This document shows, piece after piece, positions 30,436 through 60,316 of a stretch of DNA of 64,000 bases; within the stretch, counting starts at the first letter, position 1; the number at the start of each line of letters is the position of its first letter. This DNA comes from Bdellovibrionales bacterium (GTDB lineage: Bacteria > Bdellovibrionota > Bdellovibrionia > Bdellovibrionales > UBA1609). The position numbers were made by a program, and so were the translations under genes. The notes beneath the pieces are model-generated. The model was not told the origin of the DNA, ran no database searches, and was given only the letters and a program-made list of their open reading frames with translations. The DNA lies in NCBI GenBank assembly GCA_965199825.1, contig OZ241329.1:768001-832000 (forward strand), read 5' to 3'.

Positions 30436-31110
30436 TCAAAATTTAGTCACCGAAAAACTTTGGGACATCAGTGGCATAGGCGCAGTCATTTTTGCAGCGA
30501 AGGACTGCTTTTGCTCCGGGCACGATTTTTTGAGTGGATCGTTTTTTGATAAAGCGGTTCGAGTGTTCTCCACCATTGTTTCTTGGATGGTTGCCGTACG
30601 CCTTAATCGCTGACTCAGGAGATCACGCGAGCGTTCGAAGTCTTTAAATTCTTCCAAAGTCATAGCAAACCGGATGTCCACCTGAAGTTCATCCCCAGCG
30701 TTATAAAGTCGTGCCCGCTCTTTGAGTTTTTTTGCAGGCGACGCTTTTGCCACTTCTTTCTCAAGTGCGCGCTTGGAGCCCTGTGCAAGTTTCAACCAAT
30801 GCTCGGCATTTTTAGGCGTGATCACACTGCAAATTCGATTGGCTTTAGAGATCGAAAGCTGCCCCGAAGCGATTTGTAATTTGAGCTCAGGGATCAAGGC
30901 ACATTTTTTAGCAACTTTATTAAAAATACTGATGAGCTCTTCAGTCATATTGAGCTTGTTGCAGGTAAAATCAAAAAGTGATCGACTCCCATAAACATAA
31001 TGGGTTTTTGCTCGCCAAACATTTTCGATTGAAAGCACCAATTCCGCATCTGAAATATTTTTGACCGACACAGCCTTGAGTACGCGAAAATAAATTTTTT
31101 GATGATCCAC
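30436..31110 (-). pseudogene. Truncated HNH-family paralog lacking the HNH domain (may still be expressed)
   Basis: Near-identical to 36218..37042 up to NDPLKKSCP, then divergent; no HNH motif. Confidence 0.8.
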
Positions 31111-31346
31111 AATTCGCTCCTACTTAATAAAGCGAAATCTATCAAAAAAAATATCCACTGCAAATTGATATAAATAAATATTGTAGGTTATTGATCGGGC
31201 GAAATTTCCGGTGGTGGCTTTTACTTTGTCAAAAAAATTTGAGCGGGCACGACTCTTTACGTTTAACGCTGAACTCAGCGACACTAACCTATTTTAAAAA
31301 ATCCCAATCTCAACTCGAACACGATCTCTAGACTAAGGAATTAAGA

Positions 31347-33991: not shown

Positions 33992-36079
33992 CTATTTTTT
34001 ATCTTTCACATCACCACGTGCAAAAATGCTGGCCACATAATGGAGCACATCGATTGCCGAGATCTCATCGTAACCGAATTCTTTGATCAATCGAGTTTTG
34101 ACGATGTCGATTTTTTCTTGAGTGTCTTTATCTGTAACAGAGCTCACCAAGGACGTGAGCTTAATGCTGTCTTTTTGATCTTCGAAAAGTTTGAGTTCTA
34201 AAGCCCGATGCAGTCGCTCATTTGTTTTGTAATCAAATTTTTTACCTTCGAGAGACAATGCTCCGATGTAATTCATAATCTCACGGCGAAAATCATCTTT
34301 GCGTGATTCTGGAATTTCAATTTTGTCTTCAATTGATCGCATCAATCTTTCATCCGGCTCATCGTCCTGTCCGGTAAACTGATTTCGTACGCGCTCTTTT
34401 TGTGTGTAAGCCTTGACGTTGTCGATATAGTTTCCACACAAGCGTTGAAGTGCACCTTCGTCAGCCGAAATGGCTCGCTGCACTTCGGATTTAATGATCT
34501 CCTCATACTCTTGCTTCACCACACTTAAGAGTTCGCGGTAATCGGTTTTTAATTCTTCATTCGCAATCAGAGAGTGGTGCTTTAACCCAGCCTCGAGCTC
34601 ATTCATCACCATAAAAGGATTTACCGATCCCTTATTTCTTTGTTGCGCCATCACGATTGCGTTTGAAAGTTTGTCTTGAATGTAGCGAGGAGAAATCCCT
34701 CCAAGCCCTTCGCGTTTTGCATCTTTTCTTAACTCTTTGATATTGTCTTCGGTGTAGCTCGGAAGACTTTTGCCATCATATAATTTAAGTTTTTGAAGAC
34801 GGGTGAGATTTGCTTTTTTTGGTTTTTCTAAACGAGTGAGAATGGCCCACATCGCACCCATTTCAACCGTGTGCGGTGCAATGCTCACACCGCGAAGAAC
34901 CCGGCTATTAAAATCCTTGCGATAGATTTTAACTTCGTCTCGCAATTTTGTGATGTAGGGAATATCAATTTTGACGGTGCGATCCCTTAAGGCTTCCATA
35001 AACTCATTGTCTTGAAGTTTGCGATACTCAGGCTCGTTGGTATGCCCAATAATCACTTCGTCGATATAAGTTTGAGCAAACTTTTTTGGTTTAATTCTGT
35101 GCTCTTGCGAAGCTCCCAAAAGATCATACAGAAACGCGACATCGAGTTTTAAAACTTCAACAAATTCAATCATGCCGCGATTGGCGATATTGAATTCACC
35201 ATCAAAGTTAAATGCTCTTGGATCAGAATCCGATCCATATTCGGCGATTTTGCGATAATTCATATCGCCGGTGAGTTCGGTGGAGTCTTGGTTTTTTTCA
35301 TCTTTGGGTTGAAAGGTTCCGATTCCTACCCGATCGGCTTCGCTTAACACCAATCGTTTGACTCGCACGTGGCTCAAAACTTTTGAAACATCGCCATTAT
35401 AAATATCCATCAGTTTTTTAAAAATAAATCGGCTTGGCGGACAGAGCTCTCCTTTGATCTGCACCCGAAACTCGGTTTTGTTTCCGCGATTAAGTTCTTC
35501 ACAAATTTTGGCGCGCATCTCTTCAGGAATCAGTAGCAGAGGCTCTTCGTGCATCGGACTTGGAAACACTTTGACGTTGGGTCCCAGCACATCTTCAAAG
35601 CGGCCCTCTTCATCAAACCACTCGAAAGTATAAAGGGCACCCTGATCGGTTTTTGCGTATTTCTCCACACCTTGTTTGAGCAAGCGACAGATTGTCGACT
35701 TCGCACTTCCCACAGGGCCATGAAGAAGAATGACTCGCTTTTCGGTTCCATAGCCCAAGGCCGCAGCTCTCAAAACATTGACCAATTTCATCAACGGAAT
35801 TTCTGCGCCGAACACAGCGTCGCGTCCGTCATTTTCTTCGTCATCAAAAAAGCGATAATGGGTCATTTGTTTTTTAACGTCGGTGTAATTCTCAACACCT
35901 TTTTCGATCACAAGATCATACATGCGCTGAAAGGCATTGCGCGTGACCTTTGGATTTTCACGAATCAAATTGAGATAATCATCAAATGTTCCAGACCAAC
36001 TGAGATCTTGAAACATTTTGTTATCTTGTAAGGACTTGATGAGTGCGGAATAATCCACACGACCTGAATTGCCCGCCAT
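33992..36079 (-). CDS. prkA: PrkA/YeaG serine kinase / AAA ATPase
   Basis: [33 protein letters not shown]. Confidence 0.95.
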
Positions 36080-36217
36080 GTGCTAACCTCCTCGAACTTA
36101 CACTTAAGTATGCATGAAAGGCGAAGGGGGTACCAATGAATCTACGACCCCGACTAATGACTAGGAATGCTCTGTAGTGTTCAAAGGGTTTTGCAATGAA
36201 CGGTTGAGCGGCAGCAG

Positions 36218-37042
36218 CTAGTGGCTATTCTGATGGTGGGCACGATGATGCCCCGAACAAAGAATTGTTAGGTTATCTAGTTCGTTCGTCCCGCCTTCTA
36301 ATATCGGTTTGATATGATGAATATCAATATGTCGCCGCTGCTGGCAGCGCACGCCGTTTTCATCAACATGCATGCATTGACTAGCGCATTTGTGCTGAAC
36401 TTGACGCTTGAGGATGACAGTCATTTTTTGTGAGCCAGTTTTCACAGGTGGGCACGATTTTTTTAGTGGGTCGTTTTTTGATAAAGCGGTTCGGGTGTTA
36501 TCTACCATCGTTTCTTGAATCGTTGCCGCGTGTCCTAATCGCTGACTCAAAAGATCACGCGAGCGTTCGAAGTCTTTAAATTCTTCCAAAGTCATAGCAA
36601 ACCGGATGTCCACTTGGAGTTCATCCCCCGCGTTATAAAGTCGTGCACGCTCTTTGAGTTTTTTTGCGGGTGAGGCTTTTGCCACTTCTTTTTCGAGAGC
36701 ACGCTTGGAGCCCTGTGCAAGTTTCAACCAATGTTCGGCATTTTTAGGAGTGATCACACTGCAAATTCGATTGGCTTTGGAGATCGAAAGTTGGCCCGAC
36801 GCAATTTGTGATTTGAGCTGTGGAATGACGGCACATTTTTTAGCAATTTTATTAAAAATGCTGGTGAGCTCTTCAGACATATTAAGTTTGTTGCAAGTAA
36901 AATCAAAAAGTGATCGACATCCATAAACGTAATGGGTTTTTGCTCGCCAAACATTTTCTATTGATAAGACCAATTCAACATCTGAAATATTTTTGGCCGA
37001 CACAGCTTTGAGTGCTCGAGAATAAATTTTTTGATGATCCAC
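36218..37042 (-). CDS. HNH endonuclease with helical (DUF222-like) N-terminal region
   Basis: QC..C..IHHIKP..GG.N...NL..LCSGHHRAHH; GTG start after AGGAG. Confidence 0.88.
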   Translation of the reverse strand: MDHQKIYSRALKAVSAKNISDVELVLSIENVWRAKTHYVYGCRSLFDFTCNKLNMSEELTSIFNKIAKKCAVIPQLKSQIASGQLSISKANRICSVITPKNAEHWLKLAQGSKRALEKEVAKASPAKKLKERARLYNAGDELQVDIRFAMTLEEFKDFERSRDLLSQRLGHAATIQETMVDNTRTALSKNDPLKKSCPPVKTGSQKMTVILKRQVQHKCASQCMHVDENGVRCQQRRHIDIHHIKPILEGGTNELDNLTILCSGHHRAHHQNSH

Positions 37043-37391
37043 AATTCGCTCCTATTTAATAAAGCGAAATATATCATAAAAAATATGCGCTGCAAATTGA
37101 TATAAATAAATATTGTAGGTTATTTCTCAAGCGAAATTTCCGGCGGTGATATTATCTTTATCAAAAGTTTGAGCGGGCACGATACTTGATCGCTAATTCA
37201 AACCGAAACATTTCGCACACCAGTAGACAGCGCTAGCCCTGGTTACAAATCATAGATGATAAAAACGGTGTGGTTTGTTATTCAACCGAAAAAATGATTT
37301 CGTGCATGAAGGTGAAATAAGATATTGGAAAATGTCGCTCAAGCGAGCGGGCACGATCACCGCTACTCATAGATCAGGAATGAAGATCCTG

Positions 37392-37447
37392 AAAAGCGAG
37401 TTCGGCTTGGCATAAGATTGCGAAAGCAATCGAATGTCTGAGCTTTT
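37392..37447. repeat. REP-like hairpin, copy C
   Basis: AAAAGCGAGTTCGGCTTGGCA...GATTGC-gaaa-GCAATC...ATGTCTGAGCTTTT. Confidence 0.75.
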
Positions 37448-37454
37448 AAGCATC

Positions 37455-38090
37455 TCAAGGTTTTTCTAAACTAAACAATCCCTCGCGCGCATCAATCTTA
37501 GGCGAATAGTTTTGAAAGTTCATCTGTAAGCTTCCCAATTCATGCGACACCATGACGGTTCGCTTATCTGCAAATCGGTCGCTCACTTTGATTTCGAGAT
37601 GATGAGGAATTTCTTGGCAAGTTTTTAGCAAACCTTTTTCATCGTTCGAACATTTCCAGTCTGCACTTTGAACAGGTCGATCAAATAAAATATTATAAAA
37701 CCAGTGCGGATCCATTGGGATTGGCAAAACGTTTTTTAGACTCTCTGGTTTTGCGGGCCCAACAAAAAACTTTTTCTGAGGGACTACGACGTACCGAAGC
37801 TCGTCGCCATTCAAAACAATTGTTGCAACATGCCCACCAAGACTTGAGGTGAGATCAATGCGCAAATGCTCGTCGCTGACCGCATTGGCTTTCATGTAAA
37901 GAATAAAAGTTTTTTGATTTTTAAGATCGCGAACCAAAACCTTGGCTTCAAAATGCCCTGAGGTTTTGTCGGATAATTTTACGGGTGTTGTTTGACAGTT
38001 AGTGAGAAGCAGGCTCGCGCAAAGTGGTATCGACCACTTGATGATCCACTGCTGCCAGTTTGCTACGGATTTCTTGAAGTTTCTTTTCAT
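37455..38090 (-). CDS. LolB-like lipoprotein (start uncertain)
   Basis: LLLTNC lipobox; LRIDL..SLG beta-rich pattern; follows a large TPR gene as lolB often does. Confidence 0.55.
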   Translation of the reverse strand: MKRNFKKSVANWQQWIIKWSIPLCASLLLTNCQTTPVKLSDKTSGHFEAKVLVRDLKNQKTFILYMKANAVSDEHLRIDLTSSLGGHVATIVLNGDELRYVVVPQKKFFVGPAKPESLKNVLPIPMDPHWFYNILFDRPVQSADWKCSNDEKGLLKTCQEIPHHLEIKVSDRFADKRTVMVSHELGSLQMNFQNYSPKIDAREGLFSLEKP

Positions 38091-39840
38091 CTTTCTCGGT
38101 CTCCACCGCTCGTCGGTACATGCTTTTTGCTTTGTCCACAAGCTGGAGTCGATAATAAACGTCGCCAAGGTGTTCGGCAATAATGCTTTCTTGAGGGCCC
38201 ACATTTGCGGCTTCTTCCAAAAATTTAAGCGATTGGTCAAATTCGCCTTTTTTAAAGTGAATCCATCCAATGGTATCCAAGATAAATGGATCATGCGGTT
38301 GAAGGGTCAATGCTTTTTCTGCAAGCTGCTCGGCTTTATCGAGTTCATGACCCTGTTGCGCATACGTGTAAGCCAAAAAATTGAGAGCTTGAACATGTTC
38401 GGGCTCTAATTTGAGGACGGTGTTCATTTCATCAATGCACTTGTCGGCTTTGTCCAAACGATCGGCCATTAATCCAAGATAAAAGTGGAGTTGTGGATTC
38501 AGTGGAAATTGAATCGTTGCGCTGGTGAGCATATTGAATGCGGTGCTTGATTCTTTTTGCTCATCTAGGATGGCGGCATAAAAAGCGTAAAGCTGGGGCT
38601 GGTCGTGACGTTCGCTTAAAGCTTTTTCGACAACCTTACGTGCTAAGCGCAGATCTGTTTTTTTGATGATCGATGCACTGTGGATAATAGCGTCGGGATA
38701 AAATTGGCTGTTTGAGGGAACAAGTTTAAAATGATCAAGAGCTTTATTGGTTTGCTGAATTTCTTCGTAAACGGCTCCAAGATAAAAACGAATCTTGTCG
38801 CTCTCAGGGGCTTGAACAATAATGTCTTCGAGTAAAACAACTGCACGCGGATACTCTTTGCGTTCAACCAAGAGCAAAGCAATTTTTAATTTTAGGGTCA
38901 AATTGTCATGCTCTAAATTATCGACAACCTCGAGTTCAACCAAAGCGTGATCGATATCTTCTTTTTCTAAATAATAGGAGGCAAGCTCTTGAGCCACATC
39001 ATGGTTTGGTCCGTAATGATCTTCAAAATCTCTTAATACTTTGATCATCGCCTCAATTTTATTCTGATCTTTAAGATTAGCGGCGAGATCTAAAATTGCC
39101 ACATCTAATCCGGGCTTGATGCTCAAAGCTTTTCGAAATGCGGCTTCGGCGTCTTTTAATTTTCCCATTTGTTCATAAACTTTACCTTCGAACAAAAAGG
39201 CTTGTGCGCGCTCGGGATTGTCTTTTTGATTGCTGAGCTCTTTGAAAATGGCAATCGCTTCGTCGTATCTTTTTTGCTCGGCCAACACGGCGGCTTTTAA
39301 AACTTTGGCAGAGGTATTGTCAGGATCAATTCTCAAAGCTTCTGTGTATTGAACCAAAGCTTTTTCATAAATTTTGAGTGTGCAGTAAATTTCGCCCAAT
39401 GCGAGATGAGTCCGAAGTGTGTCGGGCTCAATTTCAACCGCAATTTCGGCTTGCTCTAAAGATTCTGTCATTGCTTGAGTCTTTGCATACTCGCCAGCAA
39501 GGCGGAGATGTATCCCTGCAGCCTTTGGATCATAAATGGTTGCAAGCTTGAATTCTTCAATCGCTTCGGTTGATTTGCCGTCGAGACTCAAAGCCTCGCC
39601 CAAAGTGAAGTGATAATCAGCCTGGCTGCGAAGATATACTGGATCAAGGTTTGGATTTTTTAAATCCTCGCTCGGTGGTGTCATTGAGCGTGGTGCAAGA
39701 TTTGATAAGTTCTCAAAATTTTTAGTTTGTGATGCGCAACCCGCACAGATGAGTAAGAAAAGAGCACCACAAAATTTTATTTTCACCATCATACATTTAT
39801 TTCGGATGCTCGAAGATGTCGCATAAGGCTTGTGTTTCAT
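37999..39840 (-). CDS. TPR-repeat lipoprotein (start probably ~39790)
   Basis: CAGC lipobox; many TPRs; ALNFLAY, LDTIGW, EHLGDVY. Confidence 0.88.
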   Translation of the reverse strand: MKHKPYATSSSIRNKCMMVKIKFCGALFLLICAGCASQTKNFENLSNLAPRSMTPPSEDLKNPNLDPVYLRSQADYHFTLGEALSLDGKSTEAIEEFKLATIYDPKAAGIHLRLAGEYAKTQAMTESLEQAEIAVEIEPDTLRTHLALGEIYCTLKIYEKALVQYTEALRIDPDNTSAKVLKAAVLAEQKRYDEAIAIFKELSNQKDNPERAQAFLFEGKVYEQMGKLKDAEAAFRKALSIKPGLDVAILDLAANLKDQNKIEAMIKVLRDFEDHYGPNHDVAQELASYYLEKEDIDHALVELEVVDNLEHDNLTLKLKIALLLVERKEYPRAVVLLEDIIVQAPESDKIRFYLGAVYEEIQQTNKALDHFKLVPSNSQFYPDAIIHSASIIKKTDLRLARKVVEKALSERHDQPQLYAFYAAILDEQKESSTAFNMLTSATIQFPLNPQLHFYLGLMADRLDKADKCIDEMNTVLKLEPEHVQALNFLAYTYAQQGHELDKAEQLAEKALTLQPHDPFILDTIGWIHFKKGEFDQSLKFLEEAANVGPQESIIAEHLGDVYYRLQLVDKAKSMYRRAVETEKDEKKLQEIRSKLAAVDHQVVDTTLREPASH

Positions 39841-40006
39841 TTCTGGTCAAAGGCTTGGGCAATTCGCCAAGGACCAGGTTTTAAGCTCGACTTGACAGGT
39901 TGTGACGCGCGGGAATATGTTCAGCGCGATTTGGGGGGCCGCTTTGGTCACCTTTTGTGACCAGTCCAGGGTCGACATTTAGTGGTTATTCTTTGAGGGA
40001 GGCATT

Positions 40007-40543
40007 GTGAATCAAGAGACGGTAATGACGAGCAAGGCAAACAGCAGAACTAAAATAATCAAGCGATATCAAAATCGAAAACTCTACGACACTCAGCAAT
40101 CCTGTTACGTGACTTTAGACGACATCGCAAAAATGATTCGCTCGAGCGAAGACGTGATGGTGATCGATAATAAAAGCAAAAATGATATTACTGCTGCAAC
40201 TCTCACCCAAATTATTTTTGAATCCGAAAAGAAAGCTTCGCAGTACGCTCCCTTGTTTACGCTTCGTGAAATTATCCAAAACGGAAACGGCAGCATCTCT
40301 AGCTTTTTGGCAAAACTTGGCGCATTTCCTAAAGACTATGCCGAAAAACAAACCCAAGCTTTGGGCGAGATGATGAACTCCGATCGTAACGACTCACGCA
40401 GCTCTTACGATGATGTGAAGCAAACCCTCGAAGAACGTGTCGCAACCGCAGCCAACGCGGCCACGTCGTCAGATTCAAGCCAACGCGGCTACAATGAGCT
40501 TACTCCTGAGCTTCCATCGTCAAATAAAGGTTTTAACAACTAA
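40007..40543 (+). CDS. PhaR-like PHA synthesis regulator DNA-binding protein
   Basis: IIKRYQNRKLYDT..S.YVTL, DIT..TLTQIIFE. Confidence 0.85.
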   Translation: MNQETVMTSKANSRTKIIKRYQNRKLYDTQQSCYVTLDDIAKMIRSSEDVMVIDNKSKNDITAATLTQIIFESEKKASQYAPLFTLREIIQNGNGSISSFLAKLGAFPKDYAEKQTQALGEMMNSDRNDSRSSYDDVKQTLEERVATAANAATSSDSSQRGYNELTPELPSSNKGFNN

Positions 40544-40550
40544 TCATTTA

Positions 40551-40587
40551 TCTGCGTGCAACTTTTTGTTCACGCAGAGTCCTTTTT
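40551..40587 (+). terminator. Probable intrinsic terminator
   Basis: TCTGCGTG...CACGCAGA stem followed by T-run after stop. Confidence 0.5.
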
Positions 40588-40902
40588 AATTTTTGCGGCA
40601 TTTTGATTTTGAACTGATGTTGATCGTGAGCACGACAGCTTTGTGGGCACGTAAAAATCTCGAGAGGTGTCAGTCTTTAAATGACTGGGCACGATCAGTT
40701 GAAACTATCGACTCAACAAGAGTTTAGAACACCCTTAAAGATTTCGTTAGAAGCGGGCACGATAATATCTCCGGCGATGTTATTTTATGGGTCAATTAAA
40801 AATTAGCGGGCACGATAAATTCTATCTGATTATAATACCGCGGAGATGTCATTCAAGCTTCTCTCCCACATCATGTGCACGATCAAAGGCTTCTCGAAAA
40901 AA

Positions 40903-41785
40903 GTGGGCACGACAACTTACTGCGGGCACGACAACTTACTTGCGGACACGATAACTTACTTGCGGACACGATAACTTACTTGCGGACACGATAACTTACT
41001 TGCGGACACGATAACTTACTTGCGGACACGATAACTTACTTGCGGACACGATAACTTACTTGCGGACACGATAACTTACTTGCGGACACGATAACTTACT
41101 TGCGGGCACGATAACTTACTTGCGGGCACGACAACTTACTTGCGGGCACGACAACTTACTTGCGGGCACGACAACTTACTTGCGGGCACGACAACTTACT
41201 TGCGGGCACGACAACTTACTTGCGGGCACGACAACTTACTTGCGGGCACGACAACTTACTTGCGGGCACGACAACTTACTTGCGGGCACGACAACTTACT
41301 TGCGGGCACGACAACTTACTTGCGGGCACGACAACTTACTTGCGGGCACGACAACTTACTTGCGGGCACGACAACTTACTTGCGGGCACGACAACTTACT
41401 TGCGGGCACGACAACTTACTTGCGGGCACGACAACTTACTTGCGGGCACGATCACTTACTTGCGGGCACGATCACTTACTTGCGGGCACGATCACTTACT
41501 TGCGGGCACGATCACTTACTTGCGGGCACGATCACTTACTTGCGGGCACGACAACTTACTTGCGGGCACGACAACTTACTTGCGGGCACGACAACTTACT
41601 TGCGGGCACGATCACTTACTTGCGGGCACGATCACTTACTTGCGGGCACGATCACTTACTTGCGGGCACGATCACTTACTTGCGGGCACGATCACTTACT
41701 TGCGGGCACGATCACTTACTTGCGGGCACGATCACTTACTTGCGGGCACGATCACTTACTGTGGGCACGACAACTTACTTGCGGC
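40903..41785. repeat. 20-bp tandem array, consensus TGCGGGCACGACAACTTACT
   Basis: 42 full units at 40921-41760 plus terminal variant units. Confidence 0.98.
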
Positions 41786-41857
41786 AAAACCCTGAGCTCC
41801 AGCGACCGCAGTTTTAATTGTGAAGGCGTGACGAGGAAAACTTTGACTAAATAAAAA

Positions 41858-42151
41858 TCAATCGGTGATTTCTGCCTTCAAAGCCCAATCCACAATCACA
41901 TCCGAATTTGAAACCTGATCGGTCTCGATAAGAAGATTTCGATGCTCAGCAATGGCTATCGCCGTAAGGTCTCGCACCACCACAACATGTTGAGGTGACA
42001 TGGGGAGCACAACATCAAAAGCATGATCGTTTTGCTGTACGGTTGCGGTCACCACACCGCTCTCATCAATCGACAAAGCATGAGGATCGATGCTGACCCG
42101 AATGTAATCTGCTGCAAATGCCGAAAGAGCGCAAAATAAAAGTTGGAACAT
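41858..42151 (-). CDS. Small secreted hypothetical protein
   Basis: Signal peptide ending AFA; AGGAG RBS. Confidence 0.65.
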   Translation of the reverse strand: MFQLLFCALSAFAADYIRVSIDPHALSIDESGVVTATVQQNDHAFDVVLPMSPQHVVVVRDLTAIAIAEHRNLLIETDQVSNSDVIVDWALKAEITD

Positions 42152-42181
42152 AGAATCTCCTTTAAAACAAAATTACTACTA

Positions 42182-43453
42182 CTAACGGTAGCTGCGCCAA
42201 AGGAGAAAAGATTTTTGTCTTGATTTTACAACGATCGAAGCAGGAGCTTTGGATTCACTGGTGGGTTGGTTTTCTTCAGAGAGCCCTTGCACAGATACGG
42301 TATGCACGCCCGCGGGCACGAGAATGCGAGCGATCTGAAAGCTTTCGGGCAAAGTGGACCACTGCCTTAAATCGGCCTGATCAGCTAGGTTGAGCCCCAT
42401 CAGTGTAAGTTGACCTAATAGAGGATTTTTTTGTGCAATCTGATCGGCAATCACCACTTTTGTGGCAAGGCCCGCCACTCGCTTCGCAATCAAACCGGCG
42501 TATTGATCATTCAAGGTTTTGATCGAAACATCCTCAACCGAAAAGACATTTTGGGACAAACTTGAGCCTGCCCCTTCGACAATCAGTCGAGCGCCCGTCG
42601 TTTGTGAGCGCACCGGATACAATCTCGGGATTTGGGCAAACTGCGGACTTGGATTTTTGCGCGGGCCCCAGCCTTGCTCATAAATCAAAACGATTTCGCC
42701 ATAATTTTTGTCGCGCCAATGAGGATTTATTTTTTCGCGCGGAAATTGGGCGCGCCATTTTTGAAGTTCTTCGGGCCTTTGGGCAGCCTCAGCTGCGCGA
42801 ATTAAATCGTTATGCAAAAAAGGCATGTTCGGCTGAACTTTAAAAGCATTTACATAATCGATGTAGGCATTGTCGTAATTAAAATCATTTTCCCAAATCA
42901 GAGCCGACAGATAAAATGCAAATGAATTTTGCTCGTAAGGACGCTTGGCTTCGTATCTATATTTATAAAGCTTTTCGTTGAGTCGGCGGGTTTCGACAAG
43001 GGCATTTTCGGAATCGTGGAGCATTAAAAAATTGACCGCAAGCATGGCGTTGATCATCACTTTTTCGTAATCATCCCCTTTGTATTGAATCATACCTTCG
43101 TTCAACACAAGAGATCCGAATTGTCGTGAGATCGAATGGTAATCGACAATGTCTGCGATTTTTTCGGCTTTTAAAAATGCGGCATTACTTTCTTTGTATT
43201 GACCTGCATTCTGCAAAACGGTGCCGTAATCAAAAAGGTAAACCAACTGGTCGTCATTTTCGGCTTCGGCCAAGAGCTTTAAAATATTTGCGGCTTTTTG
43301 CAGTTCGCCGGTGCGAAGAAAAGTGCGCGAGGCCTCAACCTTTGTTTGGTATGAGGCGCAAGCGACTAGGAGAAAGGGCAATAAACAAAATCTATATGCC
43401 AAGGTGTTTCTTTTTAAAGATTTTGCGAATCTGTTTATAATCGGTCCAAACAA
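42182..43453 (-). CDS. COG3014-like TPR lipoprotein (true start probably downstream)
   Basis: LVAC lipobox, YKGDDYE, ADLRQWSTLP; adjacent to lpoB. Confidence 0.75.
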   Translation of the reverse strand: MFGPIINRFAKSLKRNTLAYRFCLLPFLLVACASYQTKVEASRTFLRTGELQKAANILKLLAEAENDDQLVYLFDYGTVLQNAGQYKESNAAFLKAEKIADIVDYHSISRQFGSLVLNEGMIQYKGDDYEKVMINAMLAVNFLMLHDSENALVETRRLNEKLYKYRYEAKRPYEQNSFAFYLSALIWENDFNYDNAYIDYVNAFKVQPNMPFLHNDLIRAAEAAQRPEELQKWRAQFPREKINPHWRDKNYGEIVLIYEQGWGPRKNPSPQFAQIPRLYPVRSQTTGARLIVEGAGSSLSQNVFSVEDVSIKTLNDQYAGLIAKRVAGLATKVVIADQIAQKNPLLGQLTLMGLNLADQADLRQWSTLPESFQIARILVPAGVHTVSVQGLSEENQPTSESKAPASIVVKSRQKSFLLWRSYR

Positions 43454-58749: not shown

Positions 58750-59280
58750 TCGTGCCCGCTTTTTTTTGGGCGGTTGAGTTTGTCGTGCCCACATCTTTAT
58801 TTGATTGGCCGAAAAAATCTTTGTTTTTAAAAAGTTTGGTGTTTGTGGAACCATTTCCTTTTTTTGCCTGGCGTGGATTTGAAGCTAAAAATTTTGTCGT
58901 GCCCCCTTTGTGTTTCGGTTGGGCCGAAGTTTTTCGTGACCGTCTTTAGATTCATTAGAGCGAATTTTTTTGTTGTGCCCATTCCTTTAAATCAAATGGA
59001 ATCTTTGTTTTTAGAAGTTTGGTATTTTGTAGGATCATTTAATTGTCATGTTCGGATTTTGTTGGTGGCCGAAGTCTGTCGTGCCCGCCTTGAGATTGTT
59101 TTTTTGTCGTGCCCGCTTCTTAAAATCATAAGGAATTTTTTGTTCTTAGAAGTTTGGTGATTTATAGGAGACTTTACTTTTCTTACCCAGCGCAGATTTA
59201 AACCTAAAGAATTTTGTCGTGCCCATCTTTAGATTCATGAGACCGAATTTTTTGTCGTGCCCGCACAAATTTTCTTGACG
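58750..59280 (+). repeat. Degenerate cluster of TCGTGCCC motifs upstream of the HNH gene
   Basis: Motif at 58750, 58783, 58897, 59079, 59107, 59217, 59255; variants near 58934 and 58973. Confidence 0.88.
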
Positions 59281-59473: not shown

Positions 59474-60316
59474 ATGGATCATTCAAAAATTCATCTCAAT
59501 GCGTTGACCGCTGCTGATGCTCATCGCAAAACCGAAATGGAATTGCTCAATGCTTTAGAGCTTGTTTGGAAAAACAAAACCTTTTCGCAATATGGTTGCC
59601 GATCGTTGTTTGAATATTCAACCAAACACCTCAAATTATCCGAAGAGATGGCAAGTATTGTAAACAAAATTGCAAAAAAATTTACTGAACTTCCTGAACT
59701 TAAAGCAGGCATGGAGTCTGGTGAACTTTCACTCTCAAAAGCGAATCGAATCACTGCGGTTGTCACAAAAGAAAATGTGGATCACTGGATGAATTTGGCC
59801 AAGGGCACCAAACGCAATCTCGAAAAACAAATTTCCATGGTCCAACCCGAGAAAGCAATTCCGGAGCGGGCACGACATCAAAAAGCGGGCGACACTTTAC
59901 GAGTCGCGATTTCTTATTCGATGACTCAAGAGGAATTTGCAATGTTTGAACGGACACAAGATCTTTTGAGCCAAAAATTAAAGCGACCGGCCTCGATCGG
60001 TGATGTTCATCTTGCAGCTCTTAAAGAGCTCCAGCAAAAGCTCGACCCGTTAGAAAAACCGATTCGCCAAAAATCAGCGGGCACGACAAAATTGACCATC
60101 GCACTAAAGCGAAAAATCCATCACAACCTGAAAAGTCAGTGCAGTCATATTGATCAATCCGGCGAGCGTTGCCCCGCGCGACGCCACCTTGATGTTCATC
60201 ACATCATTCCTAAATCGCAAGGCGGATCAGATAACGAAGAAAACCTGACCCTTTTATGTTCAGGACATCATCGTGCTCACCATCGAAAGGCTAGGAACTC
60301 CCAAAAAGCGTTTTGA
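59474..60316 (+). CDS. HNH endonuclease, divergent paralog of 36218..37042
   Basis: MDH.KI, YGCRSLF, LS.SKANRI, LDVHHIIP..GG.D...NL.LLCSGHHRAHH. Confidence 0.9.
   Translation: MDHSKIHLNALTAADAHRKTEMELLNALELVWKNKTFSQYGCRSLFEYSTKHLKLSEEMASIVNKIAKKFTELPELKAGMESGELSLSKANRITAVVTKENVDHWMNLAKGTKRNLEKQISMVQPEKAIPERARHQKAGDTLRVAISYSMTQEEFAMFERTQDLLSQKLKRPASIGDVHLAALKELQQKLDPLEKPIRQKSAGTTKLTIALKRKIHHNLKSQCSHIDQSGERCPARRHLDVHHIIPKSQGGSDNEENLTLLCSGHHRAHHRKARNSQKAF

Follow-up and report, generated by a model that had tools for sequence, protein, structure and literature searches.

A 44-unit minisatellite in a Bdellovibrionales chromosome, built from a word that accompanies a multi-copy HNH gene family

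Closest described systems and the HNH-family protein

Bacterial minisatellites are usually taken as chance products of slippage, and both bacterial VNTRs and plasmid iterons consist of head-to-tail units with blocks of variants. The window analysed here, a stretch of 64,000 nucleotides (positions 768001-832000 of chromosome C1 of Bdellovibrionales genome G000, which is 2.78 Mb long and has overlapping ends), contains a minisatellite at C1:808903 that shares the head-to-tail units and the variant blocks (Table 1). It is unlike VNTRs and iterons in that nearly all arrays of this genome have one core, referred to below as the word, that no Rep gene or origin lies nearby and that unit lengths are unphased. 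Homing endonuclease genes disrupt their own target, whereas the HNH genes that accompany the word hold several intact putative sites. For the mycobacterial REP13E12 / DUF222-HNH genes we know of no described mode of spread. Like the genes studied here, they are multi-copy and dispersed and combine a helical domain with a C-terminal HNH domain; they may differ in that Pfam DUF222 was hit by no more than 2 of 119 homologs here (E 0.009), and the cited parts of the literature describe neither a cognate site nor minisatellites for REP13E12 (PMC10589994, PMC3592412).

In REPtrons (RAYT/TnpA-REP, BIMEs, REPINs), as presented in the cited parts of four papers, an enzyme gene is flanked by a cognate short repeat that is spread genome-wide, and the repeats are lineage-specific and form tandem higher-order arrays, as is the case here (PMC8266576, PMC3116915, PMC5581495, PMC6006769). 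The repeat occurs in many extragenic copies that cluster at the gene of the enzyme, and the word behaves likewise. RAYTs are HUH enzymes, mostly single-copy and, in the same parts of these papers, without evidence of mobility (PMC8266576, PMC3116915, PMC5581495, PMC6006769), whereas the word is partnered by a nuclease of the HNH type that has a predicted ParB-like HTH, is present in about 28 copies and is duplicating. The word also lies inside the gene, forms head-to-tail arrays of 16-25 bp units and is non-palindromic, without a hairpin or GTAG foot; the corresponding words of relatives are palindromic. The system works like a REPtron but is set apart from it by the defining features, since the enzyme is not of the HUH Y1 type (the word is near 2 of 17 Y1 genes versus 25 of 25 HNH genes) and hairpin plus foot are absent.

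ParB dimers bind the palindromic 20-bp parS site through the recognition helix of their HTH (PMC7383237, in the part cited). ParB-parS, Noc-NBS and KorB-operator systems, as far as that source covers them (PMC7383237), resemble the present one in the predicted HTH fold and in the palindromes of about 20 bp found in relatives; unlike them, the protein studied here has a C-terminal HNH domain and no detected CTPase domain, its putative sites lie in its own gene and G000 carries what is likely a half-site. Phage HNH enzymes are described in the cited part of PMC3592412 as nickases with site and strand specificity that, when fused to a DNA-binding domain, cut close to the site of that domain, and the HNH domain of our protein resembles those of GVE2 (Z 6.3) and Gme (Z 5.5). 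A literature search that covered main texts and was thin on subscription papers yielded no description of a word-HNH system. New here are the stand-alone minisatellite as an extreme product, the census of arrays and a parallel case in genome G546.

A structure model obtained with AlphaFold from an alignment of 119 sequences reached a pLDDT of 95.7 (37 from the single sequence). Residues 16-140 of the model matched the DNA-binding domains of ParB, KorB and Spo0J (ranks 1, 2, 4 and 5) with Z scores of 6.3-7.5, which are middling and below the caution level of the tool. Residues 144-192 matched weakly (Z 4.8) the N-terminal domain of TraM, which we take to be a ribbon-helix-helix, and residues 205-274 matched HNH nucleases, the two nickases among them. 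A Foldseek search against the PDB gave nothing at E 0.001 or better. Among the 119 homologs, Pfam detected HNH (PF01844) at the C-terminus of 118, HTH_ParB in 2 and DUF222 in 2 (best E 0.0087). From the model, the protein is predicted to begin with a ParB-like HTH, followed by an RHH-like segment and then by the HNH domain. The family comprises 14,804 sequence clusters, has no described mode of spread and occurs in 89 of the 151 genomes of the order; the closest outside protein is P0002, and the best match in a GTDB sample was 43-50%. The closest outside homolog cluster (P0151, P0152) has the recognition helix of the G000 type and S-C at the position of the word, and carries an N-terminal extension of repeats of about 8 residues.

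The array, its surroundings and the word census

Each unit of the array consists of the site word GYGG(G/A)CACGAY and an A/T-rich linker, and four 20-bp variants are arranged in blocks (GGACACGA is a variant form of the word). A 19-bp GTGGGCACGACA is followed by 1x GGGCACGACA, 8x GGACACGATA, 1x GGGCACGATA, 16x GGGCACGACA, 5x GGGCACGATC, 3x GGGCACGACA, 8x GGGCACGATC (the final one 19 bp) and a closing GTGGGCACGACA. TRF reported positions 40905-41784 with period 20, 44.1 copies and 98% match, and the parse of all 44 units left no spacers between them. The original prediction of 44 units in variant blocks without spacers was thereby borne out, the copy number being that of the assembly, and so was its observation that the first and last flanking units are alike. 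Its reading of the blocks as successive local expansions also agrees with the data: 19-bp units and GTG-type units of ancestral type lie at both edges, and the variants differ from one another by single changes. This arrangement would fit internal turnover of the array. One 8-unit block carries a G-to-A change in the core, and similarly damaged blocks have expanded elsewhere in the genome.

Table 1. Features of the window (positions within the 64,000-nucleotide stretch)
Feature	Position	Strand	Basis
Truncated HNH paralog, 224 aa, HNH domain lost	30436..31252	-	89% identical over 209 aa
Intact HNH-family gene, 274 aa	36218..37042	-	Pfam, word scan, structure model
Two site words upstream of the 36218..37042 gene, pointing away from the gene	37175..37356	+	word scan
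Left neighbour gene, PHB_acc_N DNA-binding domain, outside element	40007..40543	+	PF07879, E 9e-29
Six dispersed, partly degenerate same-orientation word copies	40626..40882	+	word scan; BLAST
Module B (CTCCGGCGRTGT-type word)	40769..40780	+	sequence comparison
44-unit minisatellite	40903..41784	+	unit parse, TRF, contig overhangs
Right neighbour, 97-aa ORF, convergent with left gene, outside element	41858..42151	-	ORF list, Pfam
Cluster of seven exact copies of the site word, upstream of the 59474 gene	58750..59279	-	word scan
Intact HNH-family gene, 280 aa	59474..60316	+	word scan

In contigs from sequencing run X1, which may stem from the same sample as the assembly and which cover the edges of the array, the left-flank contig overhangs to 40962 and the right-flank contig to 41731. 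These ends coincide exactly with the limits of unique 31-mers, the last on the left and the first on the right, as computed from the window. Because the contig ends match these limits, both edges of the array exist in run X1; the contigs break where the repeat is expected to break them, which speaks against the assembly artefact that had been named as a possible refutation. Elsewhere in the assembly, one set of tandem repeats on contig C5 recurs at a distance of 12,187 bp, which suggests that a small replicon was assembled in duplicate.

The original prediction did not include six dispersed word copies that precede the array, at 40628, 40645, 40687, 40755, 40808 and 40875. This stretch resembles the DNA found upstream of HNH genes at other loci of G000 (75-79% in BLAST against C1:512577-512646, 246401-246768, 2565765-2565822 and 1575846-1575910). 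The six words and a second module lie in the 280 bp before the array, which match both HNH-upstream regions and other stand-alone clusters; the second module, module B, recurs in clusters upstream of HNH genes, in further stand-alone arrays and at some of the Y1 loci. This match to HNH-upstream DNA gives the locus the look of an orphaned copy of such a region, the last word of which would have run away into the array. A third word, TACCWTCGTTCRC, has 76 intergenic matches on C1 (for example at 1538562 and 1576486), often abutting arrays, and a similar word is present at Y1 loci of G546. The 97-aa ORF to the right had no Pfam match. No terminator-like site was found within 40400-42000, where promoter matches were at chance level only, and folding of 40600-40960 was not notable (z -1.45). 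A CRISPR or guide-RNA array was rejected on the missing spacers and on the lack of any Rfam match at E 0.1 within 36000-43000.

The core GYGGGCACGAY occurs 393 times in G000; the reversed control gave a single match there, and 40 relatives have 0-10 copies of the core. A 12-mer version was counted 223 times versus at most 4 in 108 genomes of the family, and 228 tandem word pairs were found versus 0 in 398 of 400 genomes of the phylum. With TRF restricted to periods of 8-40, a minimum of 4 copies and a match of 85% or more, the word is carried by 16 of the 18 arrays on C1 and by 16 of 20 over all contigs. The search for similar arrays in the genome, which the original prediction had named as a check, showed the minisatellite to be one of 16 word-built runs on C1, with units of 16-25 bp, mostly 17-19 bp; word arrays are intergenic and spread across the chromosome. 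As an 8-mer, the word has 522 copies on C1, 348 of them intergenic and 162 no more than 1.5 kb away from HNH genes. Local duplications of 30-300 bp that have become degenerate are also centred on it. In ordinary coding DNA the word is slightly enriched (10 copies against a control mean of 2.75) and no avoidance was seen there, which makes efficient, lethal double-strand cutting at the word unlikely. A scan of genome contigs for triple words gave at least 119 stretches; the 80 that were inspected had short repeats of 3-12 words, and no HNH-family gene lay beside any of these 80. A metagenome scan for the system returned 3 loci, all distant.

The period of 20 bp had been taken as about two helical turns, as in an iteron-like protein-loading array. 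This part did not hold: since the periods of the sister runs span 16-25 bp, the 20-bp period carries no phasing signal, and the array lies 163 kb from dnaA (C1:972130) and the skew minimum (972316). There is no Rep gene among the neighbours of the array, and stand-alone clusters show no strand bias (7 leading versus 7 lagging). An iteron or replication-origin function was thus rejected on the distance to dnaA, the non-Rep neighbours and the range of periods.

The word at HNH genes of G000 and of relatives

Chromosome C1 has 28 loci of a 270-aa HNH gene that are about 50% identical to the window copy. In 25 of 25 called HNH genes the word lies 100-500 nt upstream on one strand, with 0 on the opposite strand, and in other genes the same test was positive for 39 and 43 of 2414 (two strands). 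Inside the HNH genes there are three word positions, the first at +394, the second at either +585 or +605 and the third in the range +785 to +797; a fourth internal site suspected at +180 from a 200-bp periodicity was not supported. In the window, the 36218 gene has words at 36238 and 36450 and a degenerate copy at 36641, the 59474 gene has words at 59868 and 60079 and a degenerate copy at 60271, and the truncated paralog has words at 30518 and 30709 and an upstream word at 31245. The truncated copy and the 36218 gene are in direct orientation and bracket three genes, which we take to be prkA, yeaH and a spoVR-like gene; it is the left copy that is without its HNH domain.

The word is conserved inside the HNH genes as DNA. 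Among 64 conserved degenerate codons in the 24 intact genes (4 of the 28 loci were excluded as broken), the four most fixed were codons of the word (24/24, 23/24, 21/23 and 18/20), in genes of which the four-fold sites are near saturation (median identity 0.39). At positions 196/198, A (135/147) and R (134/147) prevail in outside homologs, and S-C-P, as spelled by the word, is found in 14 of the 28 G000 copies. The proposed link to an HNH-family protein was hence substantiated by the word upstream of all called HNH genes and at their most fixed codons. Eight close pairs of paralogs mostly show homology between about -250 and +800, with unrelated DNA on either side, and this homology of about 1 kb corresponds to the stretch from the first upstream word to just beyond the last internal word; an identical tract of 521 nt between HNH copies stops 4 nt beyond that word. 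Empty sites were seen neither for HNH elements nor for arrays, close relatives included. Across the order, HNH genes have a TTGAC and then a T-tract at some 200-270 nt ahead of their start codon, as at 59275 in the window, where the TTGAC comes next on the gene strand after the word cluster; it is missing from the paralogs at 30436 and 36218. A AAAACCCATG box is found near -30 of HNH genes, and the intervening DNA is variable with a near-constant length.

In relatives, 93 of 96 HNH loci were analysed (3 were dropped, with no HNH cysteines found or too short a flank); because these are best hits related by kinship, the following counts are not independent. The linker of the gene shares at least 12 nt with its upstream DNA at 20 of 93 loci versus 1 of 93 control windows, no shared word being found at this threshold in the other 73, and a perfect palindrome of at least 12 nt lies in the linker at 31 of 93 versus 5 of 93. 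An earlier, narrower test for shared words was weak (6/36 versus 6/108 windows), AACNNNKCCCGGGMNNNGTT matched 7 of 151 genomes, and a poorly designed pattern, GYCCCGGGRC, showed no general enrichment over control. The words of relatives are mostly lineage-specific palindromes of about 20 bp. Because one half of the G362 palindrome matches the start of the G000 word, the latter is likely a half-site of such palindromes. Word copies lie in or beside HNH genes in 7 of 7 cases in G473 and 9 of 9 in G256, and, in G502, at one of the listed HNH genes in 2 of 6. In G036 and G481, HNH subfamilies differ both in the predicted recognition-helix residues and in their palindromes, a correspondence that is confounded by descent. 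Microsatellites of 6-8 bp and tandem repeats of 20-120 bp often lie less than 1 kb from HNH genes of relatives (L005, L008, L029, L031, L210, L214, L267, L273, L278).

G546 offers the parallel case. Its own word has 85 matches, with 0 in the control and 0-1 in two congeners, and sits in HNH linkers, in intergenic palindromes and in frame in giant ORFs; it also forms 29-bp tandem arrays at three contig ends, one of them directly upstream of an HNH gene. Most copies are far from HNH genes. At L246, L247 and L248 the HNH-linked palindrome recurs every 0.5-2.6 kb in and between ORFs of up to 3416 codons, apparently in frame. Palindromic symmetry often runs 3-6 bp into otherwise variable flanks (L230-L253), which suggests arm-to-arm copying at the site.

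Possible origins of the array

The arrays are word-specific, the gene duplicates are bounded by the word and the words are matched to lineages. On this basis we give a probability of about 0.5 to the reading that the minisatellite is a stand-alone expansion of a putative 11-bp binding word of the HNH nuclease, grown through nicking and duplicating repair. The predicted ParB-like HTH would read the word, the HNH domain would nick at or near it, and strand-displacement or slipped re-synthesis would copy 16-25 bp that contain it. Each such duplication would add a site and so invite the next event, and ordinary slippage or unequal exchange could then turn the variants over into blocks. In 9 of the 16 runs the periodic span is a whole number of units, in keeping with the duplication of one site, and 6 of these 9 begin no more than 1 nt from the word's 5' edge; 7 of the 16 fit expansion between two pre-existing words equally well, and the single-site pattern is suggestive only. 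Clusters have G/T-rich DNA before and C/A-rich DNA after them (intergenic controls are weaker, with the same sign), an asymmetry that repeated single-strand exposure could produce. The multi-copy HNH nuclease element is probably selfish. More tentatively, it may represent a selfish ParB-like-HTH/HNH class, widespread in Bdellovibrionota, that writes its recognition site into both its gene and its borders, is mobile as a 1-kb unit delimited by such sites without a HUH or DDE transposase, and by nicking at the site generates minisatellites, palindromes and in-frame insertions in a sequence-directed way.

The strongest rival accepts the word as the HNH binding site and has the arrays arise by ordinary slippage and be kept by selection as titrating decoys or loading platforms. 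ParB-type proteins do bind arrays of sites, the arrays here are intergenic and chromosome-wide, and the 16 of 18 that carry the word would be explained without a special mutation process. Against such selection, unit length is unconstrained, the degenerate local duplications also centre on the word, and the 8-unit block with the altered core, like the damaged blocks elsewhere, fits drift in a duplication process; we therefore consider it unlikely. That the array is no more than a neutral VNTR, or that it represents iterons or an error of assembly, is very improbable. The copy number of 44 rests on the assembly and not on spanning reads, and block structure is generic for VNTRs, but the contig break points match exactly, and the position far from oriC and the lack of phasing do not suit an iteron; the neutral-VNTR reading is removed by the word-specificity of the arrays.

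The two remaining rivals assign the word to another protein, and we regard each of them as improbable. If a host regulator or nucleoid protein used the word as an operator on the HNH genes, and the arrays were unrelated slippage products, the fixed place of the word upstream of the conserved TTGAC and promoter-like box would be accounted for. This agrees poorly with a word that is private to one genome and with different palindromes at different HNH subfamilies within one genome (G036 and G481, where descent confounds the comparison), and none of four LexA-type patterns occurred in the 3 upstream regions tested. Alternatively, the word could be a REP-like substrate amplified by a Y1 (RAYT-like) transposase, the HNH genes merely collecting or exploiting it. 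G000 has 17 Y1_Tnp genes, one array lies upstream of the Y1 gene at C1:247000, the Y1 word and the array word both begin with GGGCA, and RAYTs lie beside clusters of their cognate repeat, with REPs in tandem arrays, in the cited parts of PMC3116915 and PMC8266576. However, 13 of the 17 Y1 genes have unidirectional upstream clusters of a word of their own, GGGCANTGTCA, often in local duplications of 140-224 bp (for example at 155843, 247000 and 1598466 on C1), an architecture identical to that of the HNH genes with another enzyme. The HNH-type palindrome was found at 1 of 24 Y1 loci in five relatives, with related words at one more, and at 0 of 5 in G473. Since Y1 genes carry their own word, the HNH-type word is rare at Y1 loci and the array has no notable fold, a RAYT origin is unlikely.

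Nearly all conserved minisatellites of this chromosome thus have one word in common, and this word goes with a family of nuclease genes. The word would offer a concrete substrate, so that movement of HNH genes (perhaps of REP13E12 too) and nucleation of repeats become directly testable, and site-specific nickases of one family, whose sites vary naturally, could be a resource for tools. A 308-aa IS1-like transposase that scores below the NCBIfam cut-off is also present in six copies, at C1:1289493 and five more loci.
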